A stretch of 63,599 bases of DNA, filler included, from Hausera hauseri (Eukaryota): assembly GCA_046269625.1 (NCBI GenBank). It is 11 parts of 11 records of this genome, joined end to end, with 100 filler letters (N's around TTAATTAATTAA, not from the genome) between each part and the next. Parts side by side here need not be neighbours in the genome. Positions count along the whole stretch, not along the records: positions 24,447 to 29,190 come from JBJURY010452690.1; 10 more parts are not named here. The stretch is one strand, 5' to 3'. Positions 1 to 42,988 of the stretch are shown piece by piece. Within the stretch, counting starts at the first letter, position 1. Every line of letters starts with the position of its first letter. Position numbers and translations under genes: made by a program. The notes beneath the pieces are model-generated. The model made no database searches and was not told the DNA's origin. It saw only the letters and a list, made by a program, of their open reading frames with translations.

Positions 1-149
1 GTTAAATACAATTGATCTTCCAATGACTTTGCGCTCTGCTCCTGTCAGTTTGTACAATACATCTGCACAAATTTGAATTTTGGGCTCTCGCCTGGTTAAC
101 AGGTTTCATCCAGTATGTTACCTAAATCTCCAATTCGATATACATGGGT

Positions 150-3930: not shown

Positions 3931-5808
3931 TCAGTACATTAATACTCATTGATCCATTGAAGGCGAAGCATCTCAACATAATTTGCCATGTACAATCACG
4001 TACTTTCTTTATATTTTTTGCAGCTCCTATTTGTCTTAAATGACCACTATGGTGGTAATTAAAACATATTCCAAAAGCTCCAGATATAACATGACAAAAA
4101 ATAAGGAATTTATTCCAGAAGTCATAAAGGACCATTTTAGCTGTTCTTTCTAAATGATCAATTGGCAATAATATTCTATAATTAGGTACGGCGTCTAATC
4201 CTTTCGTAACAATATATACAAATTCTGTAATGACTTTGTCTCGGATATTCTGAAATAATACTTCTTTTATTACTGCTTCCAGGTATATCAATGAATATAA
4301 TCCACTGGTGGGAAGTTCTCTATTTATTTTAAACGTCATACTTTTATCCAGTGGTAATAATCCAATCATATGTGGTATGTTCATCATTGTTAGTTGGCGT
4401 GTTTAGTCCATCTTCCATCGTTGAGTTTAAAGGCAGGATAAAAGTCTTTATAACATGGTGCAAAGCTGATTTCAGTAGTTAAAAATAACGTTCGGGTAAT
4501 AGGGTCCACAAATCCTATTTTAATTATGTTTATATCGTTGTATTGGACCATTAATTCGTTCATGAAATTTGCTTTTGGTGATGTTACGGGAGCTACCTCT
4601 ATCGGTGAGCATTGGTGCACATGGAGTATTTTACCTTGTACTCCACCAAGTGTTCCAGGGCGATATTCCATAATTAAGGCAATATGTTCGCGGAACTGTA
4701 TAGCTAGTATCAAATCATACTGGTTCGATCTTTAAGTGATTTTACAATCTCTCAGTACCATCACGTTACAAAATTCAACTAAATCCATTTTTGCGGTGTG
4801 ATAGATATAGTCCATCTTGTTATTTGTATATAGGTACCACTTTATGTTTTCAGTTGGTAATTTTCCTGTATTTTCAAGAGTTATGTTTGTTACAAATAAA
4901 TCTTCATAAGATGTAGAGTAAACTGCATTCGATTCACAAGTCGATACTGCTCCTTTACGTGCCAGTACGATTCCATCTTTGTCACTGGATGACATTAGAG
5001 CTTTTAGGGAAATGGTTTGTTTTAAGGTTCGTGGGGTGGGTAAACTTAAATTATGGTAATATACAGGTTCTTGGTATTCGCCGTCATAATATAAATGACC
5101 TTATATATTCATACATAGATACTTTTTTAAGAAAAGCTAGTGGACATATTAAGATCGTTTTTTCCCAGACTAGTGTAGATTCTCCTAGGGTGCACACTTT
5201 GTCTGAATATGTACAGGATGGTGCAGTTAACATTTTCCCTCTGATTGCATCGAAATTTACTTTATATTCTTTAATGGTAAAGGTAATCTTTTATTTGTAC
5301 TACAGCAGATTCCGTTTCTCCATTTGTCATCATATTTTCTCCGTTACAAGCTCCACCGTATCCGGGCCATATTTTTCCGGCTGTAACTATACGTGAATAA
5401 ACTCGTTTCTCTATGCCTGCATGTATTGGCTGTTGAAAAACTACATGAAATGAATCCGTAGCTTTTCTACAATTTTCATCTGTTATTGTCACGGGTTTAG
5501 GTAGTGCTAGTGGAATAATTACTGAATTCAACGAATTATGACCGCAATTATAAGCGAATACAACTTTATTAACTTGACATTCCTTTACTTGCACTTGTTG
5601 ATAGCTGATTCTTTGATACAGGTTATAGTTGTAGGGACTTTCTTTCTTTACTGATATTGGATTTGCATTTTGCAATTTGCCTATATCCACTAGTGAAAGT
5701 CTGGCTGTTATTTCCGGTTTGGAGCAATCATAGGCTTCTAAGGCTTTTGTAGTTTTTAAGCTGCTAATAGCCATCAAATATAGTAGCAGGTGAATAATTT
5801 GTACTACC
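3914..5808 (-). pseudogene. Chuvirus-like / herpes gB-type (class III) fusion glycoprotein, env analogue, fragmented
   Basis: Signal-like VVQIIHLLLYLMAISSLKTTKA then AYDC..LSLVDIG, LYQ..VKECQV...YNCGHNS, CTYSDKVCTLGESTLVW, YTNNKMDY, PGTLGGVQGKILHVHQCSPIEV, FVDPITRTL, TSGLYS, and a C-terminal hydrophobic FWNKFLIFCHVISGAFGI/YVLITTIVVI. These motifs are colinear with chuviral glycoproteins as I recall them. Confidence 0.8.
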
Positions 5809-7156
5809 TAATCTGAGACATTGGTATCTTTGGAGTATATTAGTGTTGTAGGGTTAAATTTCTTAAGGATTTCATCTTAGCCTTCTTGTTTGGTTACCCA
5901 TTTTTTCGTTAGTTTATCCATGTGATGAGCTAAATCTCCTACTATGTGATGTAACTTGGTATCAGCCTCTGTTTGGCTTTTAAAGCTAATGCTATCAGTA
6001 GTCGGTTTTGATCACATTCCTCTAATAACTGTGTCAATGCTTTATTTAGGCCCCTTTCAGTTTATATTTCTGCAGCAATTTTGTGATTTGCGATGAGAAG
6101 TTTCTAGCGGTTTCTATTATAAACTGAAATGGTATCGTTGTAATTGTTGGTATCTTCTTGAGTTGATTTGGGTTAGATTTCTTAATTAATTGTTCAAGAA
6201 GTTTATGAATTGTTAATGTTACCTTAGGTATATCTATTTCATTTTGATACGATGTTCCTGTAGCAGAATCCTTTGTTTGTTCATTTTCATCATCACTAAT
6301 AATAAATAGTTGGAAGTTATCGTATAATATATCTTCTAATGTTTCTCGTTGTTCCTGACGCTTTTTAGACAGAGGTATTTTCTTGCTTTGTGTTTCTAGT
6401 TTTTTTTCTTCGGAATTTTCTTCATCATCACTTATGGGGTTAAATTCTCATTTTCGTGATCTTCCTCCCTTTTTCTTAGTACCAATCTGCATGGTAATCT
6501 GATGAATCTTTCTGCTAAGGAGCCAATAATCCACAATGTAGTCATTGTCAACGGCTAATCTCCCATACGGCTATCATATTACTTTCTAGATCTAATTCAT
6601 CTAACACTTTCCTTCGGAGATCGGTAAACTTAGTGAACATTCCTGCTGTTACTTCGATTACTTGTTCCCGCTTATTGGTTTTAATTTTCATACTTATAAT
6701 ATATGGTTGTTTCGACTGTGTTTTTGTCCTAGGTCTCTTACAAGAGTTTTAAGTAACTTTCTTGCTGCTGAAAAGCAGAATACGTCATCCTTTGTTAGTG
6801 GTAAGAGTAATGGTGCATATTTAGTTCGACTAGCTAGTGGTAGAGGCTCATATTGTCGTAGGGCATTCCATACTTCATTTGTCATTTGTAATTTAGTTTT
6901 AATTATTTCAGTTACGGATTCTGGAGGTTCACCGTACACTGTGAAACCAGGGGAATGTTCATTTCCGGGATATTTCTTGGTTTTTCCATTGGTAATAGCG
7001 TGAGAATGAGTTCGTCGTCTTCTAATATTTCAAACACTTCATCTTTGTCGACTACTTGTGGTTCCTTTTTGGATGTACCTGGCTGTATTGAATCCCAAAT
7101 ACTTTCGAGTAATGTCGGTCGTTGGTGTGGAATCTTAGATTGGGGAAGTGGTGCGA

Positions 7157-7880
7157 CTAATCTGTTCTTATAAGGTTCCATCCATTCTCCAGTTGGCCCT
7201 GTTCTGACGAAATCATGTGAATATTCATAAGAATCCATATTCGGATATCTTTGAGCAATTGGTTCGATTTCCGGGATCGCTCTTGCTTCAGATATTTTTC
7301 GAGTTTCCAATTTGCTTGGAAGGCTATTCGTAGTGTCCTCTGACTTTCTATTATCCATGGTATATTGTATTCCACTCGCGCAGTTTTTAAGTATTCGACT
7401 AGATATCTTTGCGTCATAATTTCTGAGTTATGACCATGATATAGATCCAATCATTTGTAAGTTCCGTTGATTTGTTCAAGATCATAAATGGCGTTTAGAT
7501 TTGTTGGATTTATTTTCAATGTATTCAATATTTCTGGCCATTGGCGTCCGATGATTACCTTTCCTGGTAAATATTTATTCATAAATTCATTTACTTATTC
7601 TTGTCCTTCAGGATTTGACCATCTACTATATTCGGTATATTTTGTGGCATCTGGTATGTTCGGATACACATAGATATTGAGAATGGTCTTTCCATCTAAG
7701 TTTCTAGCAGTGACTTGAGTAATTGCTTTCTGATCTCCTTTAGTTATGCATCTACCTGTGAATATTATTTCTCTATCCTGTGTTACAGGCTCATCTACAA
7801 ATAATATTGATGTTTCCTTAAGCAATTGTATTAAGCATAAAGGGTAGTTATTTAGGGGTTGAATTTGACAATCTCATTCG
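7157..7880 (-). pseudogene. REX4/ISG20-like DEDDh exonuclease-fold domain lacking catalytic acidic residues
   Basis: ORFs 7595-7825 and 7157-7450 share one frame with two internal stops: IIFTGRC..AITQVTARNLDGKTILNIYVYP..VNEFMNKYLPGKVIIGRQWPEILNTLKI..NAIYDL. This parallels REX4-type ALDCE..ARVSIVN..G..YDKYVKP..VAEMLKGRILVGHAL. Confidence 0.55.
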
Positions 7881-8058
7881 TAGGGATAATTAGGAAGTAT
7901 CATAGGCTCTTTGGAAACAATTACCGTTTTATTACTGATTTGTAACCGGGCTTCTCCTTGATTAATAAATATAGCACATGGCGTGTCGTTTCTTTTAATC
8001 TGAATATCGGTATTCTTTAAATAAATTTTATCAATACCTTCCATACAAATTTATCCTT

Positions 8059-8158: not shown

Positions 8159-9070
8159 AGGACATGTGACCGGGTGCATTCGAACACAAACATGGTGCAG
8201 TATATGAATGTGTAGTTAGAATTTAAATTTATCGAGCCGATTTCGAATAATATCGATGCAAAGTGCAACTGGGACAGACTCCCCATAGGTTTTTAGGTCC
8301 AAAGGAGTCAAAATTCGATAATATAATTAGCGGAGACAGATATGAAGTTGAATATGGCGATATTGAATATCTAGTCGAATATTCGAAATTCGAATATTTT
8401 CGAGCTCGAATATCGAAGTTCGAACTATTCGAAAAATCTAAAAACGGCAATCGATTCCTCATATATGAAAACCTCCTCATGCATAAAAATTATTCCATGA
8501 AAATGATCTATATAGGTACAAAATCAATATTTCGAATTAAGCAAAATGTGCATTTAAAGCCCAGTGAAGCAAAAATCAATAAATCTAATAGTGGAATTGG
8601 ATAGGAAGCCATGTATGTTGAATTAGAATATGACATCAGATATTATAATTCAAGCTCTCAAGTCACATATTTAGCTATTCGAACTCGAATATTCGATCAA
8701 GAATGCATCATTTTAAGAATCTAATGACGTCACTCAAATCCTCATTGGTGAAAATCTATAGTAAAATCTATAGTAAATCTATAGTAAAATTACATAATAA
8801 ATGCTAAGTAATTCTTATATTGATTAAGCAATTGAGGTGAATTTGAAGGTGAAGCACGCTAAAATCGATAAATGTTTAAGAACACATAGATAGGAAAGCA
8901 TATGTGGAGAATCGGAATATAATGTTAGATATTCGAATTCGAGCTTTCAAATCGAATATTTAGCTATTCGAACTCGAATATTCGGTCAAAATTGCATCAT
9001 TCGAAGAATTTAATGATGTCATTGGATTTCTCATATACGAAAACCTATGTGTAAATCGAATTTGGTGCCG
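8159..9070 (+). repeat. Polinton/Maverick terminal/subterminal repeat (left-end orientation) with internal ~290-bp tandem duplication
   Basis: Reverse-complement homolog of 41620-42670, which runs on to a ...CTACT terminus. TTAGCTATTCGAACTCGAATATTCG occurs at 8671 and 8960. Lies ~500 bp upstream of pPolB. Confidence 0.7.
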
Positions 9071-9584
9071 CTATGTATTTCATTTATTTGATGCATTAAA
9101 ACAAATGCACAAAATACAACACGTTGACAAATAAAATGCATCACGTTGGCAAGTTGTAAGGCTTCATATGTAATTGTGTGTGTATTAATATTGGAAATAG
9201 GGCGGCGTGATAACTCCTATACTAAATTAACTTTTAAAATTAGTGGGTAAAAGAAATTTATACATATGATGCATTTAAAACAAAATATAGTCAAATTAGA
9301 CAATAAATGCATTTAAACAAAATAAAGTGCCGAACTTACCTTACCATTAAAATATTTATTTTGCTTACATGTGTTTTGTTTTACTGTATCAATTATCAAA
9401 TTAAACTTAGAAAATATCTAACCGAGTTTTAAAATAGTATAAACAAAAAGAAAAAAGTGAAATATATAATATTGACTTTAATCGAAAATCATTATTTCAG
9501 AAAACTTTTTAACAAATGGTGAGTTTTGTTAATTCTGTTCTCATGAAAATTAACTATCTATTTAGAATTGTGAATATGAACTGA

Positions 9585-12508
9585 TAAAACGAGGCTCTTA
9601 TATTCAGCTTCCTGATTGGATTGAACGGAAAAAGGCATGTATCAATGTGAAAAATAATGACAACAAGTGTTTCATGAATGCCATTCTATCAAAACTCGTA
9701 CGAGATTAACATAATGCTTCTCGAGTTTATGTATATCAGAACATGAAGCATAATTATTATTTTAGTTGCATTGAATTCCGACAAGAAATAGATGACATAA
9801 AAAGATTTGATCGTATTAATCATATATCCATCAATATTTTCAGAGTGGATAAAACAGATAAATTTTATTCTTTACATATATGCAAAGAGGAATTGAAGAA
9901 CCATAGGAATCTGTTCCTACTAAATGATGGGAAAAAGAAACATTATGTTTGGCGCAAGAACTTAAGTCGTTTAGTAACTTCCCAAATAACAAAAAATGAG
10001 CAGAATTGAGATCTGCAAAAGATGTTTTTTACATTTCAATGGTGAATTTGCTGTGGAGAAGTTAAAGGAGTATAAAATTTATTGCAATAGCAATAACTGT
10101 ATAAGAACTGAATTTCCTAAGAAAGACAATATAGAATTCGAAGAGGTTGAAAAACATCAGAAAGTACCAATTGTTGTTTATTGTGACTTTGGGGCTATTC
10201 TCAGACCAGTACGGAGCTGCAATCAGAATCAACAACAGAGTAGTACGACAGCATACCAAGATCATGAGCTGTCGTCATATTGCATGTATGCCAAAGGACT
10301 GGATAGTAAACCATTTTTATTCAGAGGTTCAGGTGCAGCAGCTCATTTTATGAAACGACTTAAAGACATGGCTCGTAGGATTAGAGATATGTTGTAACAG
10401 CATAAGGATACAATGAGCATGTCGAGGAAACAAGAAAATAAATGGCGCAAGGCAGCAGCATGTTACTTGTGCTCCAAATCATTCACCAAGGAGAATCAAA
10501 AAGTTAGGGGTCACTGCCATTTTACAGACACATATCCGGGGACGGCATGCAACAATTACAATCTACGTTGCAAAACATGCACATATGTGACTGTAGTGTT
10601 CCATAATCTCAGTGGATATAACAGCCACTTCATAATCCAAGAAATAGGCAGCACTGATGGCAGTACTGAAGTGATCCCTGATAGTGAGGAAAAATACATC
10701 ACTTTCACTAAGCATGTTGGTAAAGTCCGACTTTGCTTCATAGACTACTTTCGTTTCATGTCGTCTTCACTGGATAGTTTAGTGAAAAACATCCATGTAG
10801 AAGAAATCAAGGAGACGAAGCGGTTCTTTCCCACTACATTTGACCTAGTCAAGATGAAAAGAGTATTTCCTTATGACTACATAACTTCATGGAAAACACT
10901 GGATAAGGCCTCATTACCACCCAATTATGGCTTTTACAGCCAGTTGTCGGACTGCGATATCAGTGATGAGGCCTGCCACATGCTCAAAACGTCTTGAGTG
11001 CATTCCAATGCAAAACAATAGGGGAATACAGTGATATTTACCTCAAGACGAATGTGTTGTTGCTGATGGATATCTTTAAGAGTTTCAGGGATGTTACAAT
11101 GAAGAGCCATGCATTGGATCCGGCTTATTTCTTTACAGATTCAGGAATGAGTTGGCCTGCAATGCTACGCTATACTGATATTAGGCTGCAGATCATTAAG
11201 GATTATGATATGATTTTTATAATCGAGAGAGGCATTAGAGGCAAAATATGCCAGGCTATTCATAGTTATGGTGAGGCCAACAACAAGTATATAGCAGATT
11301 ATAACTCATCGAAAAAATCCTCGTATATCATATACCTGGATGCAAACAATCCATTGCCATGTAATAACTTCAAGTGGGTTGAGCATCCTGAAAACATTCC
11401 TATACTGGACCTGGATCCTACTGGAGATACGGGATATATACTGGAGGTGGATATGAAATATCCGGCTTCCATCTACACAATGCATGAACAGCTGCCTTTC
11501 CTTCCGGAGAACAAAAAGCCGTCGAATGGACATGTCAAAAAGTTACTATGCCATCTTGAAAATCGGGAAAGATATGTCGTCCATTACATAAATCTACAAC
11601 AGGCTACCAGAAATGGGCTCAGAGTCATCAAGATCCGTAGGGCCCTGCAGTTCAGTCAGTTCATATGGTTGCAGCTATACATCGACTTCAACAGAAAGTT
11701 GAGGGCTGAGGCTAAAAACGACATTGAGAAGGATCAATTTAAGCTGTATAATAACAGCGTTTTTGGCAAGACCATGGAGAATATTTGTAACAGGATTGAC
11801 ATTGGGTTGGTCTCTGACTGGAAGCGAGCAAAGAAGTTCATTGCCAAGCCTAACATTCGCAGCAGCACCATATATTCAGAGAATTTGGTAGGTATCCATA
11901 TGCTGAAAACAACATTATTATTCAATAAGTCCATATATGCGGGTATGGCAATACTAGACCTGTCAAAGAACTTGATGTATGACTTCCACTACAACATCAT
12001 GGTCCCTAAGTTCAAGTCCATGCAACTGATGCATACTGATACTGATAGTTTCATCTATCAGATCCATACAGATAATATTTATGAGGACTTTGCCAAATTG
12101 GCCCAACACATGGATACTTCAGACTATCCGAAGGATCATTCCAACTATTCAATTGCCAACAAAAAAGTCCTAGGGAAATTCAAAGACAAGGTGAATGGAG
12201 CAATAATTTCACGATTTCTGGCTCTTAGGTCTAAAATGTACGCCTTAGATGTATGTGGCCAGATCAAAAAGAGAGCCAAGGGAGTTCAAAGGACTACCTT
12301 GGCCAAGAATATCAGCTTTGAGGATTATTCTAAAGTGCTGCATGTGCAGACTCACATGATATTATAGATGCGAATAATCCACTCTAGGAATCATAAGATA
12401 CAAACAGTAACATTGCAGAAAAACAGCCCAGATTGGATGGATGACAAGAGACGGATCTTAGAAGATGGAATCAGCACACTGCCTCATGGACATGTTTCAT
12501 TACTGTAA
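9585..12508 (+). pseudogene. Polinton/Maverick protein-primed DNA polymerase B (frameshifted)
   Basis: INVKNNDNKCF; HYVWRKNLSRL; VYCDF; CYLC..VRGHCHFT..GTACNNYNL; FHNLSGYNSH (ExoII); FPYDY; YLDANN (motif A, partly deleted); KLYNNSVFGKT (B); HTDTDS (C); KRAKGV; DDKR..TLPHGH. Confidence 0.93.
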
Positions 12509-14467
12509 ATATGTACATATTGTTATTCATTGTTAATAATTGTTATATAAAAATATCGTGTTGTTCTCTTGATCAAGTAATGTGGATATAGGATAAGACC
12601 AAGTAAAACTAAGTAACTACTATATAGTATAAGGCAAACTAATTTCATAACACATTTATTTTATAACAACATTGACATAACGCTAAACACTTTTTATAAT
12701 GTGTGTGCTTGTGTGCATGTCTGTGTTTGTAAAATGTAAGTGACCTGAGAAAATGTATAGTTCAGATATATGTCTGTGTTTGCCTGTGTGGGTGTATGTA
12801 AAATGTTATTAACTTGGGAAAGGAATTGTCTAAAATATCTGTGTGTGCGTGTCTGTGCTTTTGTCTGTTTTGCGTGTGTTTATGAATGGGTTTGACTGTA
12901 TGTGCGCGTAAAATGCAAGTAATATGGTAAATGCATGACCATAACATACAGTAATATATGGTACAAGTCAATGTATTAATCAATACATTAGAAAATATAC
13001 TGGTAACATGTGTAATATGGGTAATTTGCGGAGGCTAATTATGGCGAATTATAAGTAACATACATCCTATCAATGTAATGCATGTGAAACTAATCAGTAC
13101 ACTAATCAATACATAAATCAATACAATGCATCAATGCAATAATCAATACACTTATCAATAAATCAGTGCAATGCAGCAATACATTATATATACTTTGGTC
13201 TTATTTACTTAACTCTATTCACCTATATATTTAAGCCTATATACCTATATAGCTAACTCCATATGCCTATATAGTTAATCCTATACATGTATTTAGTTTA
13301 TTCTACGCACCTATATAGCTAGCCCTATTGAACTGTCCAAACATATACCATAGAGTGTATCACTTGAAAGGGTTAGGTATAAAAAAAAGTACGTAACATT
13401 ACATTATCATGTTTAAAATATGCAAAATCAAGTTGAACGTATGCATCCAGAATAATTTATAAGGAATATTAAATATTTCAAAACTATACTCCAAGCACCG
13501 AAACGACTCAGATGGAAACTCATTCATATGCTGCCATCTCATGTAATTNNNNNNNNNNNNNNNNNNNNNNNNNNNNNNNNNNNNNNNNNNNNTTAATTAA
13601 TTAANNNNNNNNNNNNNNNNNNNNNNNNNNNNNNNNNNNNNNNNNNNNAGCATGTGAACTCCAGGATTTCGATCCTCCGACTTGGCCGAGCAAAGTCTTC
13701 TTTACTACTTTAGTAAATTAGTAATATGTGAATCAGTGGTGCTGTTATAACTGAAATATCCATTCCATTCTGAATTTGTAATTCCTGCTGAATTATAGTT
13801 CATTGACTGAGATCTGTGATAAATTGATGGACGAATAGCAGAGTGTGGAGTAGTCGACAGATCTCCTGAACCATCACAGAATCCCGAATGCACATTCTTC
13901 CAGGAATGTGATCCGTGAAATGACTGGGAATTAATATCGGTATGGGCCATCAGACCACTGCCATTAGAATAACTGAAGTCACTCTGATAGCTGTTACCAG
14001 GAACCTGACATAAACAACGATGGTGTGAATTCATACCAAAGGCAGTGAGATAAATGGGATGATTTGATTTCTTATTTGAACATTATTCACAATGGTAACT
14101 GGACAGAACGACGTGGGACAAAACAACGCATTGACAAAGCGATGGGGTGACAAAACGACGTCGTTACAAGTATAATTTAATGAAATATTTATAAATGTAT
14201 TATATATTATTAGGTTAGGTTAAGAGGCAAGATTAGACTAGGGTTATGGATATGGATAGGGTTAGTAAACATCATTGATTTTTGACTTTCGGAGTGTGAA
14301 TCGTTTATTTATGATAACGATTTTTCAATATTTTATATTTATTTCATTTTACATTGCTTGTTTCAACCAATGTTGGATAAACTCCTAAACCTAACCAACA
14401 TAAAATGAAATATTTATTAAACACAATCATTATTAAATCATGTTTCACTGCACACCATCCCTATAGG

Positions 14468-23717: not shown

Positions 23718-24448
23718 GCATTTCTTCGTTTCGTTAAAGGGGTAAAAATATTCATTAACATGAAAGTAATTAAACATTTCTGCAATTAGCGTCTAGTGAC
23801 AACTTAATGAAATCTAAATTCATTCATGATATCATAAACTGATCGAAGTCACAAATATAATTCATTATTTATGCTATCCAAACGGGAACCTTTGAGGATT
23901 TATGTTCATTACTATTGGTATTTTGGATGTGGATAAGCAAACGCGCATTTGTATGTGTTGATGTCGATAATAAGTCAAAATTTAAAATCAATTGAAGGTT
24001 CCAATTTAATCTAGCAAGGCGAAAACCGTCGGACAATAACTTGATTCGGATTACCTCCTCTCACACTGCAATATTTTGTAAGGCCGAGATCCATCGGGTA
24101 ATGACTATACAACTAGACCCATTATATTGATCATCAACAGCTCCAATAAAATCGTATACTCCGATTACATCTAATAGATTGTTTCCAATGCTATTAATAA
24201 TTATACCGCAAGCGCAACGTGTTTAGTGATACAGGTGCGCTCGAATACAATTGATTATCCACTTAATGGCTCTCTTATCAAGTCAGATATAGATATAATT
24301 ACGTAAATTTATTATTTGACCCGTTCTACAAAATATACACCGAAATNNNNNNNNNNNNNNNNNNNNNNNNNNNNNNNNNNNNNNNNNNNNTTAATTAATT
24401 AANNNNNNNNNNNNNNNNNNNNNNNNNNNNNNNNNNNNNNNNNNNNCA

Positions 24449-26800
24449 TCATGAACAACAATATACGTCATGCCAGTCAAAAAGGAGGTGAGATTCAGTG
24501 ACCGGTCTAAACAGACATTCCGGCATATGTGGTACATGCCGATATAGAGGCAATCCTACCGAGGCACAACGTATACGACTAAAAGCACATACCAATCGCC
24601 GTTGATATGTTGGTTGTTCCAATAAAAGCCGCCGAACAACTGCAATATTACGTTTTTCATGGCTGGAACTGTATACGCCATTTCCTGCAACAGTTGGAAA
24701 CGATAGCAGAAACGGAAATCGCACCGTGGTACAGTAACAATAGCACTAACTCTTGACATGGACAGACGAATATGAACCGCTGCTTTTCGCTGCCATCGAC
24801 AAATGTTACCTCTGCCATAAAATATTGCCTTTTGATGCACAGGAACGGATCGTACAGGACAACGATCATTTTACCGGTCGATTCCTAGGAGCAGCATGCA
24901 ATTCATGCAATTTGGCAATGCGTGTGCGGCCATTTCTACCGGTGATCTTTCATAATTTCCAAGCTTATGATTGTCATCATATACTCAAATGGGACGTCAA
25001 CGGATTTTTGCACTAGGAACTGTTTATAATCCCAACAACAATGGAGAAGTACCTGTCCCTATCAGCAGGCATAAACCGGTTCCAGGTACGCTTCCTTGAT
25101 TCATTGTAATTTTTCAATGAATCACTGGCGAAGCTGGTAAATGCCTTGCCAGATGTGTTAATAGCCTCAATGCAGTTCCCCACAGCAGAAGAATTACCGC
25201 CGCGATTGACAGGTATAGCAGAGGATGAATACCGGAAAGCACAGAGGCGTTGGACAGAACTCGGCTGTAGAAATATGTTGGAGTACATGCTCTAGTATCT
25301 CAAAGTGGACGTGTACTTATTGGCCGATGTGTTCCAAGCGTTTCGGGCGAAAGCATTGGTTGAAGATAGACTGGAGCCACTCAACTTTTATTCCATACCG
25401 GGAATAAGTTGGGCGTCAGCTCTAATGTCACTGGATCGAGACATTGAGCTGCTGTAAGACTCGGAAATGTACCGGCGGTTTGATGTTGGTATTCGCGGTG
25501 GAATGACATTTGTCAACAAGCATTAGGTAAGTGCTACCGATAAAAACATCACTGCTGTATATTGATATTAATAACTTGTACGGCTGGGCGCTTTCGCAAC
25601 CCCTGCCGTACGATTCATTCGAATGGGTTGTCGATGGACAAGATATGGACGACATAATAGTCAACCTACCACGAGCAGACATGGCAGGCTCAGTCAGATA
25701 CCTGATGGAGGTCGATCTCGTGGTACCAGATAAGCTGCATGACGTTTTGTACAATTTACTGGTCGCACCATTTAACCAATATCCGCCAGGCTCATAAGTG
25801 AAAAAACTGCTCATGACGCATGGACTGAAGCTGAATTATGTGGTCCATTGGCGTCTGCTACAGTTCTACATACAGCTCTGTGTACGCGTCACACAGCTGC
25901 ATCGTGCAATCCGATTTGCTCAGGCTCCCATATTCAAGACGTACATAAATGGAAATTCGGAGAAACGAGCCGCAGCTTGGACAAAGTTCGAAAATGACTA
26001 CTACAAAATGAAAAAAAATTCTCTCTACCGAGAAAATTGTGGAGAATCTGAAAAAGCGGCTCAATATACGCCTATACAATAGCGAAAAGCGGTTGGTCAT
26101 GTACACGAGCAAGGCAGAGTTCAGGCGGTCAATGCACATTGCCGATGGATTGGTTGCGGTGCTGTTAAACAGAGAAGTCGTCCTGGACCGGCCAAGTTAC
26201 ATCGGACAAGTGGCATCAGACTTAAGCAAGTTGCGGATGTATGAGCTACAGTATCGCGATTTGGCACGTTACCGACAAATGTTTGACGGCTGTGACATTA
26301 GTATAATTGCCGGTGACACAGATAGTTTTTTCCTGTGGCTGAAGAAAGTCAATCGCGAACAGCTACTGCAGAAAATGAAGTCAGATAGATTACTGGATAC
26401 GTCCAACTAACCACGGGATCATCTGTTGTACAGCAGCGCGGTCACAAACAAAATCGGCTGCTTCAAGAATGGAAGTGAAAGCATGGTTAAGTATCGGAAA
26501 TAGATGTTCCTAAGCCCAAGGTGCTACAATCTTCTGATGGACTGTGGACCGAAAATGCTGGAAAAAGGAGTCCAGCTAAGACACGGAAATCGACCACGGT
26601 GATTATCGCCGTATATATGAAGAAGCGGCAGAAGGAGGACAATCAGTGGCTGTTGTGTCTCAAACGATCATCCGACCAATTGAACACCAGCTGTACACAA
26701 TAACTAGTGCGAAAGTCGCTTTGTCATGTAACGATGATAAGCTCAAGTGGGTGGGGCGAAATAATAGTTTGACGTATGGACATTGGCGGCTGAAAGAAAC
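24449..26800 (+). pseudogene. Second Polinton/Maverick protein-primed DNA polymerase B (frameshifted, different family)
   Basis: CYLCHK..DNDHFTGRFLGAACNSCNL; FHNFQAYDCH; RFLDS; YLKVDVYLLADVF; YIDINNLYGWALSQPLP (A); YYKMKKNSLY (B); AGDTDS (C); LDTSN; NDDK..TYGHW. Confidence 0.93.
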
Positions 26801-27072
26801 GCCCGTCCAAACAATAGGCGCTCTATCAGTTCAGCTCAGTTCGGTTACTCTAACAATCATTGACAATTATCCCATGTTTATTGTTTTTTATATTTCAATA
26901 ACGTATTTTGTTCAATATCTTTTGTGTTTTGGTTTCGGTTACTTACTTAACCTATTATTATTAAGTAAGTAAAAATAAAACAAAAACGTTGCACGAGAAA
27001 ACAAAATATGAAACACGAATACAATTATCTATTGATCGGGGACACTAAAATCACAAAAACACACAAAGTAAG

Positions 27073-27513
27073 TTAAATAATACTAAACTTTCCCATTTTC
27101 CACATTGGAGATTTGACGCCGCTCATTTCCTTGAATCCCTTGAACTTCAGTGTCAGGTAGCCTTTAGCTCCTTCCGGCGGCAAAACCGCCGTTTCGCCTT
27201 CACGTGAACTGACAATTTTCTTTAGATTCCCTTTCAGGAAAATGGACGATGTGTCCCAAATATCATTAGACAGCACCAAATCACTGTCAACCTTTTTAAT
27301 TGTGTCTTCCATTGAGTCCAAATCACTGTCGTTCATCTTCGGTTGTATCATTTTGACCGACTGCGACAATGCCAATTGAATAGGGGTTCGTAGATAGTGA
27401 AAGTTGTATTCATTGTACAACCCGGGATTTTCTGAGCGAATACGGGGTGTACGGAATCGTGGAACTTTCACTTGCTCGAAGGAATTGTTGTTGTTGTGGT
27501 TTACTGAAAACAT
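27073..27513 (-). CDS. Intact Polinton-associated hypothetical protein, possibly an OB-fold ssDNA-binding protein
   Basis: 146-aa ORF convergent with pPolB; its C-terminal beta-rich GYLTLKFKGFKEMSGVKSPMWKM pattern resembles viral SSBs (inference only). Confidence 0.45.
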   Translation of the reverse strand: MFSVNHNNNNSFEQVKVPRFRTPRIRSENPGLYNEYNFHYLRTPIQLALSQSVKMIQPKMNDSDLDSMEDTIKKVDSDLVLSNDIWDTSSIFLKGNLKKIVSSREGETAVLPPEGAKGYLTLKFKGFKEMSGVKSPMWKMGKFSII

Positions 27514-27767
27514 TTTTCTAATGGACAGAAATGAATTTAATTACACCTCTATATATGTGCATATATCAATTGTTTTGTTTATATTACACAAGTGTAACCA
27601 TAGATGTTTACTTTATAAAACGTAAGTCTAAGAAGAGGACACTAAAGAGTACAAATATTTATTAATGTATGACATTACAAATATTCGTCTACAACCTCAC
27701 GCATAGCAGCAGTAACATGCATTTAACGAGTGTTTAAATCATGGAACTGTTGTATAAGACTCAAAAG

Positions 27768-28248
27768 TTATTGTTTCGGTGCTTTTTCCGGTCGTTTGAT
27801 TACTGTTTCTGACTGCTTCCGTGGCGGTAGAATATCCAATAAGTCAAATTTTATGACGAACGTGTCATAATTAACCGGGAGAAGTAATTCCAATTTTGAT
27901 AGTGGAATAAATTTCGGAAATCCACTTACAATGTTGCGTTCGTCTTGTGGTTTCATGAAACATGTTGATCGTAAATCAGTTTTCAATTTATCCGAGCAGA
28001 CAACTTCACATCGTTTATTCAGCAGAGACATTTGAATCGCTGTACCAAAAGGCCGCTGCAACGTATCATCATGTTCACCTTTGACAATTGCAAAGAAAAT
28101 GATAATTGAGTACTTCGTCCAACACCATCACCATGAGATAATTTCGAATACAGAAATTGTACTGTCGGAAACTGAATGAATCACTGGTTACCGTAACACT
28201 GTTCTTTTAGTGTGTAAATTTTTCCAATGTCCAAGTGAAGGTAATCAT
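27768..28248 (-). pseudogene. Stand-alone TRAF-family MATH (TRAF-C) domain
   Basis: MITFTWTLEKF..SDSF..YNFCIRNY/HGDGVGRSTQLS/FFAIVKGEHDDTLQRPF..MSLLN..CFMKPQDERNIVSGFPKFIPLSKL..DTFVIKF. This matches TRAF2/3 GYKMCLRLYLNGDGxGRGTHLSLFFVxMxGExDxLLxWPF..SSSFxRP..MNIASGCP. Intronless, one stop and frameshifts. Confidence 0.85.
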
Positions 28249-28365
28249 AATTATGAAAATAAATGCAAATGTCAACTTTATTTATACTTTTTTTCGGTAT
28301 TGGAAAACTGACATCATCCTCATCATGTTCACATTACATCCAAGTCAGTTAAAATTGATTTTTAT

Positions 28366-28824
28366 TTATTCATAATAAACGTGTACAATTTCCGTTATAG
28401 CGCATTTACATTCTGGGCACTGGGTTACGTTGGAACATTTTTGACATAAAACGACATTCCCACACATTAGAAATGCAGTATCCACTTTTCTTTCTTTACA
28501 TTACACACGTATAAACTGAGAGTTTTGTACTTTGTTCGCTATTTTTTCTTTCATGTTTTTTAATTCACCGCCTAACCGTTCCACTGTATTAAAGTACTTT
28601 GCATCACACAATCGGTGAATGTACATTTGATTTATCGCAGAAATTAGATTTTCTATAGAGTTACAGTCTGCTGCTGCTGATTTTGTTGTCATCAATGCTA
28701 TTGACACTAAATCTTCTTTAAATCCAAAATCCGCTGCTGCTCGTACAACTAAATCACTGTTCCGATGACTCCATATTATCCAAAAATGTTTAGACTGCAT
28801 TAATGATTTCACCAGTTTTAGCAC
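28366..28824 (-). pseudogene. IAP-like UBA + C-terminal RING protein (no BIR seen)
   Basis: VVRAAADFGFKEDLV (UBA MGF-like loop), a coiled segment, then in the same frame past the 28501 stop: CKERKVDTAFLMCGNVVLCQKCSNVTQCPECKCAITEIVHVYYE*, an IAP-type C-terminal RING. Confidence 0.75.
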
Positions 28825-29290
28825 ATTTCACTCGTGCTTTTCAATTGTATTAATTCCGAAAGTGATAATTCATTAAAATTTTGCAGTTGTTTCAATTGAT
28901 CTACATTTTCTATTATTATTTACATTTAAAACCTACCTGTATTTTTAGTTTTAAACAAATCAACCAATCATTCAAATTGCGTCTGAAACATGTTTAAATA
29001 AATGAAAAACAAAATACACACGTACATATGCATTTATTTAATTGAAACAGTTTATACAAATCGCTAAACATTTTTTGTAGGCACAATGCGGTCCATGTTC
29101 ACGATATGGACACGTAATATTGTCAGGTACCATCATTATTTTAGAGTTGGTCGATGTTAAATACGTCGTCATTCGCAAGTCGGGAAATTGNNNNNNNNNN
29201 NNNNNNNNNNNNNNNNNNNNNNNNNNNNNNNNNNTTAATTAATTAANNNNNNNNNNNNNNNNNNNNNNNNNNNNNNNNNNNNNNNNNNNN

Positions 29291-30153: not shown

Positions 30154-31453
30154 CACAGTATGGCAATAAAGTTCCCCAACTTGTTTTATTATTTCACAAG
30201 GAAAAATAACACAATAATGCTAACTGCAGTGAATAAATCTAGGATGTCTTGTGCATGTCATGAAAAAATGTTATCTTTGCATCATTAGTCATGCATGAGT
30301 TAATCATAATTTCATTTATTGTGATTTTGTGTTATGTTTAGCTTGTAATATGGAACAAAAAGCAGTAATAAAATTTTGTTTTAATGTACAAAAATCGGCC
30401 ACACAAACTTTTGACATGCTGGAGGAAGCATATGAAGATAAAGCTATGTCCAGATCAAGTACTTTTGAATGGTATAAAAGATTCCAAAATGATCGAGAAT
30501 CTTTAGAGGATGATGAAAGATCTGGCGGTCCTTCAACTAATCTAGATGATATGGCGAACTCTGTGCGTGCTTTTCTTGCAGAAGACACCATTTTGACATT
30601 CCGTGAAATGAGTGAATGTTTGAAAATGAACAAGGGAAGCATTCTATTAATAATTCATGAGGATTTGAACAAACGGAAGACTTTTTCTCGGCTTGTTCCT
30701 CACTTTTCAACCATGAAACAAAAGAATCCGTGAGTGTCCTACTGCTGCGATTTGGTGGAAACAACTGACACTTCAGCGAATTTTTTGAATTCAATCGTTA
30801 CTGGTGATGCATCTTGGTGTTTCAAATACGATCCACAGACAAAGCGTCAATCATAAGCCTGGCTTAGTCATGACGAGTCACGACTACAAAGGTTCGAATA
30901 CAAAAATCGCGAGTCAAAATGATGCATATTGCTTTCTTGATGGAAAAGGAATTATGCATCATGAATTTGTTCCAGAGTGGCAAACGGTGAACGGACAGTT
31001 CCAGTAATGAAGCGTCTAATGCAGCACATCACATGTGCCAGATCTGATTTCATCCGTTCTGATGAATGGTTTTTACTTCATGATAACAGACCGGCGCACA
31101 CACCCACATATGTATTGCATTATTTAGCAAAAAAAAACAAGTTACCGTACTTAATCATCCTCTTTATTCACTAGAATTGGCACCAGCCGTTTTTTTATAT
31201 TTCCAAAGTTGAAACTCCATCTTAAATTTCGAATGTTTGATGATGTTGATGCCATTAAAACAACTGTGACAAGGGAATTAAAGGAAATTTCGGAAAACTA
31301 GTTTTCTGATAGCCTTCGGTCGGTGTAACGTCGTGAAAAGTTGTGTATGGAACGAGGAGGGGAGTATGCAGAAATTTAAGTAAATTAAGATTTCGGAATG
31401 TAATTGTTTCATGTTTCATTCACACAGACCGGGAACTTTATTGCCATACTGTG
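30154..31453 (+). mobile_element. Full-length mariner (1300 bp), defective transposase
   Basis: Perfect TIRs CACAGTATGGCAATAAAGTTCCC / GGGAACTTTATTGCCATACTGTG, TA duplication on both sides; KAVIKFCF..EWYKRF..RLVPH, IVTGDASWCFKYDP, LLHDNRPAH, YSLELAP. Confidence 0.95.
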
Positions 31454-34757: not shown

Positions 34758-35494
34758 AACAGCACAGCTGCATACTATTCGTTAGTCACTCCCAGGGAAT
34801 CTAATGCTCTCAACTGGGCCTCAAGACTATCATATAACTGAGCAGCAGTCTGTATTTTATCATTCTTCAAAACTAAATTCAATAGTTCACGAACATAATA
34901 TTCAATTAAAAATTCATCTTTACCAAATCTAGATTTTAAAAGCTCAATCGCTTTCTCATAGTTTTCTTTTGAAGGTGGAAACCCTTCTAATAATTTATAA
35001 GCCGGAGAATCTGGCTTCATACTTTGAAACAGATAATCAAATTTATCCTCTGGGGTAAGGCTGTCATCTTCGTGAATTTTAGAAAACTGCGCCCAAAATC
35101 CAATCCAGCCTTTAAAATCCCCATCGTATTTTTTGAGCTCAATTTTTGGTAAACGAACTTGTAATTTACGAGCGTTAACCACAACGTGATTTGTTGAAGT
35201 TTCAGGATTCTTCTCTAGATTATTTATTAGATCCCTTATCTTATAAAATTTAATGGAGTAGTCACCAGCTTTAATCATCTCATCCTCTATTTCTTCATCT
35301 GGTATATCTTTCGTGACAAGCAGCTCCGAATAAATCTTCTCATCAACAGCCTTTAATTTTTCATATTTATCTGTTAACGATGCAAATGGTACTGATATTT
35401 CAGCTCTATCTTTTATTTCCTTGCCCAAGAATTCAGTCAAATTATTACATTCTCGGGTGAAAACCGAACGTAGAATACGTCGATCCATAATCAC
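34758..35494 (-). pseudogene. gag: BEL/Pao gag, 5' part (DUF1759-type)
   Basis: VRLPKIELKKYDGDFKGWIGFWAQFSKIHED..EDKFDYLFQS..NYEKAIELLKSRFG; premature stop at 34775; starts just after the PBS. Confidence 0.9.
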
Positions 35495-35548
35495 GTTTTA
35501 CTTCTAAATCGAAACTAAAAGAAACAATTTACTTCTAATATAAACAGG

Positions 35549-35566
35549 GTCCTGTCGCGGACGCCA
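35549..35566 (-). promoter_or_regulatory. Primer-binding site, tRNA-Arg-like
   Basis: TGGCGTCCGCGACAGGAC begins 2 nt after the LTR-terminal CA and is close to the complement of the tRNA-Arg(UCG) 3' end. Confidence 0.75.
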
Positions 35567-35568
35567 GA

Positions 35569-35792
35569 TGTGGCGAACTGGTTCCAAATGAATTAATACC
35601 AATTCGAGAAAAACATAATCATATTTATTTAGCTGAAAATAATTCACAATTTAACATCGTTCTTTTTAACAGAATCTGCCGATGAGTCGTAGCTCGTTCT
35701 AAAATCAAAACATTAAGAGTGTTGCCATTCGGCGGGAAACAAATATGTGGCAATTCAGATACATGGGGAATAAATAAACAGTATTTCCAACA
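35569..35792 (-). repeat. BEL/Pao LTR (224 bp) between pol of one copy and gag of the next
   Basis: On the minus strand: PPT GGTGGGGAGAA, then TGTTGG...AATAAA...GCCACA, then the PBS. Confidence 0.85.
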
Positions 35793-35878
35793 TTCTCCCC
35801 ACCTTGCAAAATTCTAATTTTGCAATACTTACCAAAATCTTTAAAAATTGTAAAAATAAAATTTAAAAGTCACAGAGT

Positions 35879-38656
35879 CTATAAAGTCAGTTTTCTGGGA
35901 GGACGAACTTCTCTGCCTACACGAGTCTTATAAGTGGTCTTTGTACTAGGCTCGTTACGTCGTGAAGACTTCATAACTCGATTCATCTGCGGTGTTGACT
36001 TTTCTTCCCCAGGTTTCTTGAGATCAAAAGGAATTGTGGTTGATTTAGGATCCAGTTCAATCGGAAATAAACGCTGGACAGGTCTCAGTAGATATCCTGA
36101 TGATGTTTTTAATTTTGCAAGACGTACAATATCATCTTTGCCAGGAAAGAGTTCAACTACTCTAGCTAACATCCAGTCTATACGTTTCTTATCTTCAGAT
36201 CCGATTAACACGATGTCATTCACCTTCACTGATTTCGTTTGATCCCTGGGAGTGCTACGAAGAAAGCCCAAATATTCTCTTTTGAATCGACTTCTAAGTC
36301 CATCCCTAACTCGTTGTAAGTATTTCCATCTTTCTACTAAACTGAAATTTTGAATTTCATCAAGATCGGATACATCGTTATTAGTTAAACTTTGGAGAAA
36401 CATAGATGGTTGCAAAGGTGTTAAATCACTTCCATCTTCTGAAATGTATGTCAAGGGTCTGTTATTCATCAAACTTTCACATTCGCAGAGAAGCGTTAAA
36501 AACTCTTCATAATCTAAACAGGCATGGCCTAAGTTCTTTCGAAGGAGATCTTTCAATATTCTTATTAACCTCTCCCAAAAACCTCCCCACCATGACGCCG
36601 TAGGAGGATTAAATTTCCATTTCAATTTTTTCAAACTACATTTCTTCTCAATTTCAGTCCAGTCTAGTTGATTCATGGCTTTATTCAGACCAACAAAATT
36701 AGTTCCATTGTCCGAATAGATAACATCGACACGACCTCTTCTGGCAACAAATCTCCTAAGAGCTTCCAAGAATGATCCAGAGGTCAGAGAAGTAACTAAT
36801 TCCAAATGAACTGCCCTAAAAACGGCACATGTAAAAATTACAATCCAGGCCTTCTTTCTTTCCTTTAAATAAACTGGGCCTGCTAGATCTACGCCGGTAA
36901 TTTGGAATGTGTTGGACATTTTAACTCTATCTTCAGGGAGAGGAGGAAAAGGAACTTCAAAAGCCTTCGCTCTGCTTCGCTGACACGTAACACACCTTTT
37001 CACAATAGATCGTACAGTCTTTCTCCCCTGAAGAATCCAAATTCTTTCTCTAATGATCATCAAAAGCGTTTGAGTTCCAACATGATTATATTTCAGATGA
37101 AGTTGTTCGATCATTCGTTCCACAATTACATTTTTAGAAGGTAGTATTATAGGAAATGTATATTCATGTGTATCTTCATTATCCACAACTCGAGATTTCA
37201 TGCGCAAAATATCATCTTTGTCTGTAAAAATTTGAAGATTTTTCAGATCAATCTTTCTTTGCGTGTCAGTAAAAGCATCCTTTTGAATTAAGCAAAATAA
37301 ATTTTTCTCCGCCTTCTCAAACTCTTCAACTGATATATCAGGGTAATTTTTACTTCGGCGGCAAGCAGGTCTAAATCTTAACATCCAAGCAACAGTTCTT
37401 ACAATCATTGTATATTTAGAAAATCTTGAAGCAAGTTTAGTGAGGATCTCTTCACCTACTGTAGTAATTGCTGACACAACTGTACGCCGTCTCTCCTTGT
37501 TAATTTCTTCCAAGTCAGAAATAGAGTCGTTCGAAGGCCAGTTTTCGGGAGGCTCTTTCAAGAAAGTTGGACCTGTCCACCAATGAGACTTCAAAAGTTG
37601 TAATGGTGAACATCCTCTCGACAGTATATCAGCTGGATTTAGAATACTTGGAACGTGTTTCCAACATCCGGTCTTGCTGTGATCTTGTATTTCCCTTACT
37701 CTATTTTCAACAAACACGGACCAGCTATTTCTCTTTTTCAACCATGCTAAAACTACAGAAGAGTCTGACCAAAAGTATTTAGTCAGTTCTACACTCTTTA
37801 AACATTTAAGTGCCAATTGATGTAGTCTAACTCCAAGAAGTGCGGCCATCAGTTCGAGCCGAGGTAAAGTAATCTCTTTCAGAGGTGCAACTCGTGATTT
37901 AGCCAATATAAGATCTAAATATACTTCATCATTTTCCTCTGTTCTTAAAAATATGCAAGCACCATACGCAGATTTGCTGGCATCACAGAAGACGTGTAAA
38001 GAGCTTGTAGAATTAAGGTGAATTCTTCTGGGAATTCGGCAATCATTCAAATGGTGTATTTCAGCAGACCATTTTCTAAATTTTCTTTGTATCTCTTCGG
38101 GCAGCTCGTCGTCCCAGTCAGATTTCAACTTCCATGATTTCTGTAAAATGATCTTAGGAATTAAAACGGCAGGCGCAGTGAAACCCACTGGATCAAATAT
38201 TCTCTCAATACGAGAGAGCACCATGCGTCTGGTACAAGGTTCACTCAGGGGTATTATTTTACATCCAAATTCATCTGATGGGCGATACCATTGAAGACCC
38301 AAAATATTGTCTGCACATTCATTAGCATCTAGGCTACTTATCCAACCTCTAAGGTTAAATCCGGCTGAAGACATTAAAATTGTAGCTTCTTTAATAAAAC
38401 TCTCCACCTCTTTGTCATGAGATACACCAGTTAGACAATTATCCATATAAAATGTACCCTTCAGTTTTTGGAGATTTTAACTGTATGTTCAGGAGGATTT
38501 TCAATTAAGTGGTTCAAGCAAGATGAGAGTAAAAATGGACTGCTACAAACTCCGAAAACTACTCTGCAATGGCGTAATTCGATCACCTTTTCCCTTTTCC
38601 ACCACAGGAAACGAAGAAAATCTCTGTCATTGGGATCTACCTCGATCTGCAAAAAG
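35879..38656 (-). pseudogene. pol: BEL/Pao pol (RT C-part, RNase H, integrase), one frameshift near 38465, 5' truncated
   Basis: AFLQIEV..RDFLRFLW..RVVFGVCSSPFLL, FYMDNC; HVFCDASKSAYG, LPRLEL, WSDS, NPADILSRG; HLKYNH..CVTC; GVDLAGP, YSDNGTNF, WGGFWERL. The 855-aa part is open. Confidence 0.95.
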
Positions 38657-41269: not shown

Positions 41270-42988
41270 ATACATAAATTTCTCCGCGCCAAATTTGAAA
41301 TCTCATTAAGGTTTTCATATATGGGAAATCTATTGAGCTCGTCAGGTTCTTCGAATAACGTACGCTTTATCGATTTTTTCACTTTAGATCGATAATTATT
41401 CGATTTTAAATAATGTATTCGAATATGTAACACCAGATTCAGATTCACCATATATTGTTTCCTATCTAGATGCACTATTAGATTTATTGATTTCAGTGTG
41501 CTTAACCTCCAATTTCACTGTCAATTGCACAATGGAAATAAGCACCGTTTATTTACGTAGTATTTTTTATGTACTTCTTACTTGTCATTAAACCTTGTTT
41601 TAATACACCACAGTGCACTGTATCGCGCCAATATTGATTGCCCTATAGGTTTTCGCACATGGAGAATCGATTAAGGCAATTAGATTCTTCGAATAATTCA
41701 TCCTTGACCGAATATTCGAGTTCGAATAGCTAAATATTCGACTTGGAAGCTTGAATTCGAATATCTAAATTCATATTCCAATTCCGCACATACGCTTTTC
41801 TATCCATGTACGCTTAAATATTTATTGATTTCCGCTTCATTGCACTTTAAATTCGCATTTTGCTTAATTAGAAATATTGATTTTGAATCTATATAGTACA
41901 TTTTAATGACATACTTTTTATGCACATTGGGATTTTTGAATACGAGGAATCGATTTCCGCTGTTAAATTTTTCGAATAGTTCGAACTTCGATTTTTGAGT
42001 TCAAAAATCTTCGAATTTCGAACTTTTGACTCGATATTCGAGTTCGGCATGCTCTATTTCCTATCTGTCTCCGCTCAATGTTAGGTCGAATTTTGCTTCC
42101 CTACGCTTAAATAACATGTCAAATATATAGCCCATTTGCACTTTGGATAGATACGAATCAATAACTAATCAATAAATTAAAATTCTAACTGCACATTCAT
42201 ATACTACATCATGTTTCCTTCCTATTGCTCCAGATCATATATCCCAATCGTCCATATTGGAAATATCTGAAATTCGATATTATTGATTTTTTTACATTTG
42301 CACACATGTTTTTGCACTGCACGCCATATATGAGGATGGATCTCGATGTGCTCCATCTAACTGCACTTGACCCAGATCAATTCCATCAATCCTACGCTGC
42401 ACAATTCAAAAAGTGTGTAAAGTAAAAAGTGCTCCTGCACACCGATCAATAAACACGACACAATCGAATGGTGCACTGATTGAAAGCACATTGTCTACTG
42501 TACACACCAGTATATGTGCCATTTTGAGATTATTGATTTAAAATTTATAGCGGAAAGGCCTGTGGCGGTTCTGTCCCACTTCGAATTATTCGAAACCCAA
42601 TTAATCGATTTAAATTCTAACTACACATTCACATACAACATCAAGTGCACTACCGATTGCACCCGGTGCCGTTCCCCAATAATCAATATTGGGAATATCT
42701 GAAATCCGACATTATTGATTTTTGCACACTTGCACATGTGCTGCGCACCTGTACTGTGTACCAATCGATGCACTATCAATAAGCAGTTTGTCCCGATCGA
42801 TTCGACAAACACTGCACTGTGCAGCGATCGATTTGTGAAATGTGCAAAAGAGCCCTTAGTAACGGTGACTAGCGGCATCGTCGCCTAGCACTCTACCGAT
42901 CGATAGTGCTCCGTGTGCACTATCGATATATGGATGCGCACGCCACCCGGGGAGAGGGGTGAGGGAGAATCCGCAATTTTCCCCTACT
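41270..42988 (+). repeat. Polinton/Maverick right terminal inverted repeat with internal duplications
   Basis: Reverse-complement homolog of 8159-9070; internal duplication AATTCTAACT(A/G)CACATTCA at ~42180 and ~42613; GC-rich tip ending TTTTCCCCTACT (AGTAG terminus). Confidence 0.7.

Follow-up and report, generated by a model that had tools for sequence, protein, structure and literature searches.

A TRAF-C/MATH-only gene and a BIR-less RING gene lie side by side in a fragment of a pPolB element from Hausera hauseri (assembly GCA_046269625.1). The pair is a real feature, and the preferred reading takes it as accessory cargo of a multi-copy family of Polinton type, of which the copy described here is dead. 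Both truncated designs recur in unbroken relatives about 65% identical to them, P0005 for the TRAF gene and P0006 for the RING gene. The attribution to the element is supported by the compact, virus-like form of the genes, by the virus-like orfX that lies between them and pPolB, by the finding of no terminus motif or long inverted repeat in between, and by the adjacency of the TRAF and RING genes in public sequencing runs.

Setting of the genes

The window, that is, the whole stretch of 63,599 nucleotides that was analysed, is made of joined contigs (12 were counted) with N spacers between them, and its DNA is discontinuous. The contig that bears the two genes is flanked by 100-nt N/TTAATTAATTAA spacers (24347-24446 and 29191-29290), and since these form both of its limits, nothing outside 24447-29190 is counted as linked to the genes. 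The row of genes on this contig (Table 1) begins with pPolB on the plus strand and continues on the minus strand with orfX, the TRAF-C/MATH gene, the RING gene and the 3′ part of a fourth gene. The pPolB, TRAF and RING genes are broken, and orfX is the sole unbroken one.

Table 1. Features of the contig carrying the TRAF and RING genes (positions in the window)
Feature	Position	Strand	Description
Feature-bearing contig	24447-29190		4,744 bp; internal element fragment, assembly breaks at both ends
pPolB, decayed	24447-26795	+	tblastn, Pfam
orfX	27073-27513	-	intact ORF, 146 aa, between pPolB and TRAF
TRAF-C/MATH-only gene, TRAF1/2/3/5 type	27768-28248	-	Pfam, PDB, six-frame translation
TATA box	28279-28286	-	38 nt upstream of the TRAF ATG, in the 117-nt spacer; consensus match only
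BIR-less RING gene	28366 to ~28913-28925	-	helical N-terminal part, heptad-like stretch, C-terminal IAP/MYLIP-type RING
Cys/His-rich frame, 3′ end, cut by contig end	29047-29190	-	47 open codons, then stop and AATAAA

As the first-pass annotation had described, the TRAF and RING genes are co-oriented and convergent with pPolB, and both are decayed in this copy. They lie 1.0-2.1 kb from the C-terminus of pPolB and contain stops and frameshifts. The intergenic spacers are 117-277 nt long and contain 26-31% GC, the genes 33-45%. An AATAAA signal overlaps the stop codon of the RING gene, one is found about 100 nt past the TRAF stop, and the 277-nt spacer between pPolB and orfX contains the signal on both strands. 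A scan placed TATA boxes upstream of TRAF and of orfX.

The polymerase and the nature of the element

The decayed pPolB was aligned with that of L001, an IMG/VR contig (1-11050) with an intact pPolB of 1313 aa. Residues 564-1205 of this polymerase match 24786-26485 (+) by tblastn in three frames (E 4e-62, with 7 stops), and its C-terminus matches approximately 26646-26783 (E 3e-7). The pPolB contains an endonuclease VII-like insert recognised by Pfam (PF02945, E 3.7e-6). Judged by the L001 match, by this insert and by section 3.1 of Starrett et al. 2021 (PMC8502044), the polymerase would be of the Alpha/group 2 type. In a scan with pPolB, a single one of 384 pattern matches was a relative, namely L001 at 29% identity. 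Inspection by eye of the 8 ORFs of L001 revealed neither TRAF nor RING; some of them resemble what are presumably genes for capsid, penton, PLA2-like and tail-fibre-like proteins. Three L001 ORFs, presumably capsid, penton and PLA2-like, gave no match in the window at E<=0.1 when used as queries, a 4.7-kb contig being too small for virion genes.

The element had been called a Polinton at first pass. The pPolB behind this call is confirmed, while the other hallmarks, namely capsid, packaging ATPase, protease, rve integrase and termini, would lie outside the 4.7-kb contig; because the contig stops at 24447 and 29190, it is pPolB that carries the assignment by itself. According to excerpts of PMC8097293, Polintons/Mavericks are marked by terminal inverted repeats, which end in (AG)3 or (AGT)2, and by a 6-bp target duplication. 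A scan of the contig for terminus motifs returned motif-like matches solely within pPolB, at 25997-26026, and the longest inverted repeat in the contig measures 25 nt at 72%. A terminus between pPolB and the two genes, which the first-pass annotation had named as the finding that would detach them from the element, did not appear: neither a motif nor a long inverted repeat nor a tandem array was found there, a negative of little weight in decayed DNA.

A second and less decayed pPolB is located at 9596-12493 (+), in the contig 8159-13548. It is about 30% identical to the first, so that the assembly contains at least two distinct families of pPolB elements. Upstream of this second pPolB lies a repeat of up to 469 nt with 72-77% identity between 8304-8772 and 41632-42100, the latter in another contig, and the repeat is also duplicated at the same site (8548-8768 and 8837-9057). 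The decayed ORFs in the window at 1-8058, 30299-31400 and 34775-38476 are taken to represent a gypsy-type retroelement that includes an envelope-like ORF, a transposase of mariner and a BEL/Pao-type retroelement. Such retrotransposon- and mariner-like ORFs, along with the genes of TRAF1/2/3/5 and IAP type, suggest an animal host.

The TRAF-C/MATH gene

A Pfam search for MATH, proposed as a check at first pass, gave PF21355 at E 3.4e-12 and 47.2 bits against a cut-off of 27.4, and PF22486 was matched as well. The PDB matches of the gene are TRAF1/2/3/5. Its decay consists of one in-frame stop in the first 20 codons and two frameshifts between approximately 28140 and 28100. The ATG is at 28248, 117 nt from the stop codon of the RING gene, which is the next gene.

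The search for relatives covered proteins of 65-209 aa, and one of the four candidates, P0005, is an unbroken relative of 170 aa with 65% identity. It shares the start Met with the TRAF gene, is collinear with it without any intron-sized gap, and reaches 88.5 bits with PF21355. Against the PDB it scores 77-84 bits with TRAF1/2/3, 58-78 bits with TRAF5 and at most 38 bits with chains named TRAF4 or TRAF6. The TRAF-N coiled coil is missing both from P0005 and from this copy, the MATH match starting at residue 3-5 after the start Met, and no TRAF zinc-finger motif occurs in the six frames beyond 27000. Since P0005 is unbroken, collinear and identical in its start Met, the MATH-only form is the true design of the gene and not a product of decay. 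Pfam, the PDB, the TATA box and the shared Met of P0005 all agree with the original description of a TRAF-C domain that has its own ATG and neither RING nor zinc fingers. The term “intronless”, which had been applied to both genes, suits the TRAF gene given the collinearity of P0005 and is less secure for the RING gene, where about 68 nt are extra in the 5′ part. The predicted protein is not a full member of the TRAF family: it possesses the MATH domain and lacks the coiled coil, the N-terminal RING and the zinc fingers, of which the RING and zinc fingers are missing or reduced in TRAF1 as well.

The hot-spot positions of the MATH groove were assigned by mapping TRAF2 numbers by motif to TRAF3/TRAF1 alignments, a correspondence that is assumed to hold. 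The Arg and Tyr of TRAF1/2/3/5 hot spot 3 are kept in P0005. In this copy and in P0005 alike, hot spot 2 retains one of its three serines, and another residue stands in place of the Cys of hot spot 1. With a partly changed groove, binding of the canonical motifs is not assured at the receptor-binding hot spots, which are described for TRAF1/2/3/5 in excerpts of PMC6125299. The specificity of this MATH domain may differ from that of TRAF2/3, or it may mirror that of an invertebrate donor.

The RING gene

The RING gene has a broken 5′ end and a frameshift located between 28851 and 28773, and a stop codon interrupts it where the RING begins. In this copy the RING is matched by PF13920 at E 3.8e-5 and 23.8 bits, below the cut-off of 27. 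The search for relatives covered proteins of 80-258 aa and yielded one unbroken relative among seven candidates, P0006 (154 aa, 64-65% identical), the RING of which scores 32.2 bits with PF13920, above that cut-off. The PDB matches of the RING are cIAP1/cIAP2/XIAP/MYLIP (3EB5, 6HPR, 3T6P, 2YHN), the best ones for P0006 being cIAP2 and cIAP1; these matches leave IAP and MYLIP ancestry unseparated (35.6 vs 31.2 bits). Like the RINGs of cIAP1, cIAP2, XIAP and MYLIP, this one is C-terminal, of the zf-C3HC4_3 kind, and followed by a short tail whose end is close to an aromatic residue, but the gene has neither BIR nor CARD, and its UBA is unproven.

Pfam detects no BIR in P0001 and P0006. No full BIR motif exists in the six frames beyond 27000, where one loose BIR-tail pattern falls into a spacer, at 27732. 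Having no BIR, the gene is not an IAP by the defining feature of that family, and the family label “IAP” was rejected for it.

The first-pass annotation had described this gene as a UBA-like region plus an IAP-type RING without a BIR, and had suggested Pfam searches for UBA and zf-C3HC4_3. The RING is upheld, with a score above the cut-off in P0006 only, and so is the absence of a BIR. The UBA part gained no statistical support: there was no Pfam match, alignment to the UBA region of cIAP1 gave 3.6, -2.7 and 1.3 bits, of which 3.6 is non-significant, and the UBA-like stretch alone had no PDB match at E<=10. A UBA is plausible by position. The gene had been ended at 28824, and this limit has to be moved, as alignment with P0006 places the beginning of the gene about 100 nt further (Table 1).

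Near the 5′ end of the gene, at 28774-28850, approximately 68 nt are extra relative to P0006, which may represent an insertion, a small intron or a deletion in P0006. The AlphaFold model of the RING gene product is unusable (pLDDT 37). A cluster of look-alikes in the ESM Atlas at 0.89 has PF21290 on 14% of its members, which serves only as a lead toward a UBA. The Atlas also contains clusters of BIR-less RING proteins at 0.89-0.91, with lengths of 146-201 aa; molluscan members prevail in two of these clusters, a lead toward a wider occurrence of the BIR-less design.

orfX and the fourth frame

The intact orfX had been overlooked at first pass. Two of its four HMMER matches are credible relatives, P0007 with 53% identity (E 3.6e-31) and P0010 with 27% (E 7e-5), and the pairwise scores were reached by 0 of 300 shuffles. 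P0008 and P0009 were dropped as relatives; they are repetitive proteins matched over about 30 residues. A word-index search brought no related sequence among 55 candidates, Pfam gave no match, and PHROGs gave none better than E 0.1.

In the ESM Atlas, the look-alikes of orfX fall in clusters that are 83-100% viral, with scores of 0.90-0.94 and a recognition of 2017, under the bar of 2300. Taken together with this shortfall, the clusters weakly suggest that orfX resembles viral proteins. Minority labels in these clusters are DUF5871, Pox_I3 and DUF2738, found on 10-15% of the members in rows at 0.90-0.91. The Pfam families Pox_I3 and DUF2738 are presumably ssDNA-binding proteins, and an OB-fold ssDNA-binding protein is only a lead for orfX. 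The AlphaFold model (pLDDT 43) is unusable, and with it no BFVD match was obtained at E<=0.001.

The Cys/His-rich frame at the end of the contig has no Pfam match, and its best PDB match is at E 0.62.

Copies in public runs

Related contigs were collected at 80% likeness from two public runs of two studies, X1 and X2, with word shares of 0.35 and 0.05. They number 17,114 in X1 and 831 in X2 and are mostly 80-95% alike, and in either run all 30 bins are covered. None of the runs listed with such sequence is of RNA, a listing that has no bearing on expression. With regard to an interspersed family, the contigs establish multiple copies, that is, copy multiplicity and not genome-wide dispersal. 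One X1 contig, which differs in 44 letters, spans 28169-28656 and thereby runs from the 5′ end of TRAF into the RING gene, and a second one, of depth 242, joins 28252 to 28370. A TRAF contig of X1 has a depth of 144, the other seven of the eight X1 pieces listed having 4.5-9.8. The pieces 27338-27702 and 27671-28054 chain orfX to TRAF. In X2, the TRAF-RING joint has a side of 18 letters and was not counted as a bridge, and the bin 28899-29057 is almost uncovered (0.28). The suggestion that the genes might be single-copy host retrocopies, raised along with the first-pass annotation, fails, since the contigs cover the whole stretch and X1 bridges TRAF to RING.

These data also bear on whether the genes belong with pPolB at all, or whether they derive from a second mobile element, or from host tandem retrocopies, lying beside a pPolB remnant. 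The contig is too short to contain termini, and no bridge from the end of pPolB to orfX is present among the matches listed (16 of 18,038 pieces); intronless IAP retrocopies occur in molluscs (excerpts of PMC8917759), and MATH and BIR cargo is possible in LTR retroelements (excerpts of PMC6431247), all of which would fit such a secondary adjacency. However, the region between pPolB and the genes shows neither motifs of a terminus nor any long inverted repeat or tandem array, the spacer between pPolB and orfX is itself multi-copy, with the variant at 26932 present in 65 X1 contigs, the AATAAA signals within its 277 nt are convergent, and orfX looks viral. A secondary adjacency is accordingly regarded as very unlikely, and cargo of the pPolB element remains the preferred reading.

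Summed depth at 28263-28739, the core of the RING gene, and at 29058-29190, the end of the contig, is about that of pPolB and far greater than that of TRAF and of the 5′ end of the RING gene, in both runs. Depth cannot rank genes, and a presence of the RING gene in more subfamilies or non-autonomous derivatives than TRAF is no more than hinted at. In searches of viral contigs, no relatives of the cargo genes or orfX were present among 23, 2, 14, 194, 134 and 45 pattern matches, and in metagenomes there were none among 441 and 201.

Possible function

The two genes are probably independent decoy or effector cargo genes of a Polinton/adintovirus-type family with an Alpha PolB. They belong to a row of compact, single-ORF accessory genes located downstream of pPolB and facing it, each with a short promoter and a poly(A) signal, and would be shortened versions of signalling genes captured from the host. 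The lone MATH of an active copy might serve as a decoy or adaptor in monomeric form, sitting on the TRAF-binding motifs of receptors or adaptors and passing no signal. The BIR-less RING might act through E2 binding or through RING-RING pairing with host IAP-type ligases, which would either poison these ligases or redirect ubiquitination. The MATH and RING proteins would most likely act separately on the same innate-immune/cell-death pathway, with no complex of the TRAF2-cIAP type, and their effect would be to favour survival of the cells in which the element replicates.

This division of labour is consistent with the behaviour of the host proteins as given in excerpts of two papers. TRAF domains trimerise with the coiled coil as the stalk (PMC6125299), so a lone MATH would be a weak and probably monomeric binder. 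The RINGs of cIAPs need dimerisation and E2 binding, and heterodimers have been proposed (PMC3172091), so a BIR-less RING could act alone on host ligases. The same source describes binding of cIAP1 to TRAF2 via BIR1 and the trimeric TRAF2 coiled coil. Both BIR1 and the TRAF coiled coil are absent from the two genes and from their unbroken relatives, and joint action in the known TRAF2-cIAP form, proposed at first pass, is contradicted; a canonical TRAF2-cIAP complex was rejected for this reason. Of the captured immune/apoptosis cassette envisaged there, the part that stands is multi-copy cargo of a pPolB element, and the part that falls is joint action in the manner of TRAF2/3 and cIAP1/2. The comparison with RING-less dominant-negative TRAFs is likewise not sustained, since such TRAFs keep the trimerising coiled coil that the gene here is without.

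A different way for the two proteins to cooperate would be a split ligase, with the MATH as substrate receptor and the BIR-less RING as catalytic half, giving a TRAF/cIAP-like E3 under control of the element. The losses are complementary, the TRAF gene having no RING and the RING gene no BIR, the adjacency of the two is kept in other copies, and the RING is intact in P0006. Yet the known BIR1-coiled coil interface is absent, and the TRAF-binding motif patterns scanned were found in none of 6 proteins, both RING proteins included, which makes a split ligase rather improbable. The fuller statement, that an animal Polinton family rewires innate-immune/cell-death signalling during replication with a split ligase built from a TRAF2/3-type MATH with a re-tuned groove and a BIR-less RING, is a long shot. 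Were a split ligase real, it would be functional evidence for virus-like behaviour of these elements in animals, and planarian retroelements and Polintons would have converged on TRAF-plus-IAP cargo.

The genes could also be passive cargo, that is, host fragments that the element or one of its non-autonomous derivatives acquired and spread with no advantage gained; their likeness to immune genes would then reflect only that TRAF and IAP are large and capture-prone donor families. Both genes are broken here, the binding-groove residues of the MATH have diverged, and one unbroken relative is available for each gene (from four and seven candidates). Nevertheless, relatives that are 35% diverged keep full frames, with unchanged start and end points and with the core residues of the domains, and the genes have promoter and poly(A) signals of their own. 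Passive carriage is therefore seen as unlikely, and the reading as two independent effectors is retained.

Comparison with known systems

IAP cargo and TRAF-like genes have already been published for related elements, and the pairing is apparently new: no description of a Polinton that pairs a MATH-only TRAF with a BIR-less RING was found among the top-ranked matches of literature searches that included few subscription papers. TRAF or IAP terms are absent from the main texts on coral polintoviruses (PMC11131425), vertebrate Mavericks (PMC8097293) and spider EVEs (PMC12219104), and from that of a 2026 preprint on small DNA virus mosaicism. Animal Polintons may be real viruses that have to handle host defences, and if they are, cargo directed at TRAF and IAP is to be expected. 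The genes are best read as putative host-signalling mimics of the viral kind. The family adds a design of MATH-only TRAF plus BIR-less RING, which its natural unbroken relatives make testable; the value of the finding is limited by the published precedents and by the dead copy, the genes being known here from sequence alone.

The published systems are compared below as they stand in excerpts of the cited papers. IAP and Bcl2 homologues have been reported in adintoviruses (Starrett et al. 2021, PMC8502044), and the labels of supplementary Fig. S2 of that work include two IAP and two SSDBP. In the extracted text both IAP labels sit above the maps of Mytilus and Pinctada, which may be an effect of layout (PMC8502044). 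The element described here is similar to these adintoviruses/Polintons in being an animal pPolB element with cargo of the anti-apoptosis type, but here the IAP-like gene has no BIR and stands beside a MATH-only TRAF. The label TRAF does not occur in the part of the supplement text of PMC8502044 examined, and a TRAF of an animal element may appear in its Fig. S1.

A TRAF3-like ORF is indicated for MELD viruses in the section on non-animal datasets (PMC8502044, Fig. 5 legend; 10.1101/697771, Fig. 6 legend). In both cases a virus-like element of linear dsDNA and of midsize contains a gene resembling TRAF. That ORF was assigned by predicted structural similarity and appears in a figure cited for non-animal hosts, whereas the gene here has clear sequence similarity to TRAF1/2/3/5 and its host looks animal.

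The planarian Burro elements are giant LTR retrotransposons with MATH_TRAF_C, BIR, RING-type and BCL2-like parts (PMC6431247). Like the element described here, they are mobile elements that combine MATH with IAP-derived parts, and the MATH of the Dugesia elements forms an accessory ORF by itself. Burro is, however, a retroelement with a BIR, and the present one is a pPolB element from which the BIR is missing.

The TRAF homologue of a megalocytivirus, ISKNV ORF111L, is a protein of 296 aa composed of RING, coiled coil and MATH (PMC3352826), whereas the gene here consists of MATH only. ORF111L is comparable as a virus-encoded TRAF2-like protein and acts on death-receptor signalling, promoting apoptosis via TRADD and caspase 8. 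A viral TRAF therefore need not be a suppressor, and for the MATH gene either direction of effect is possible.
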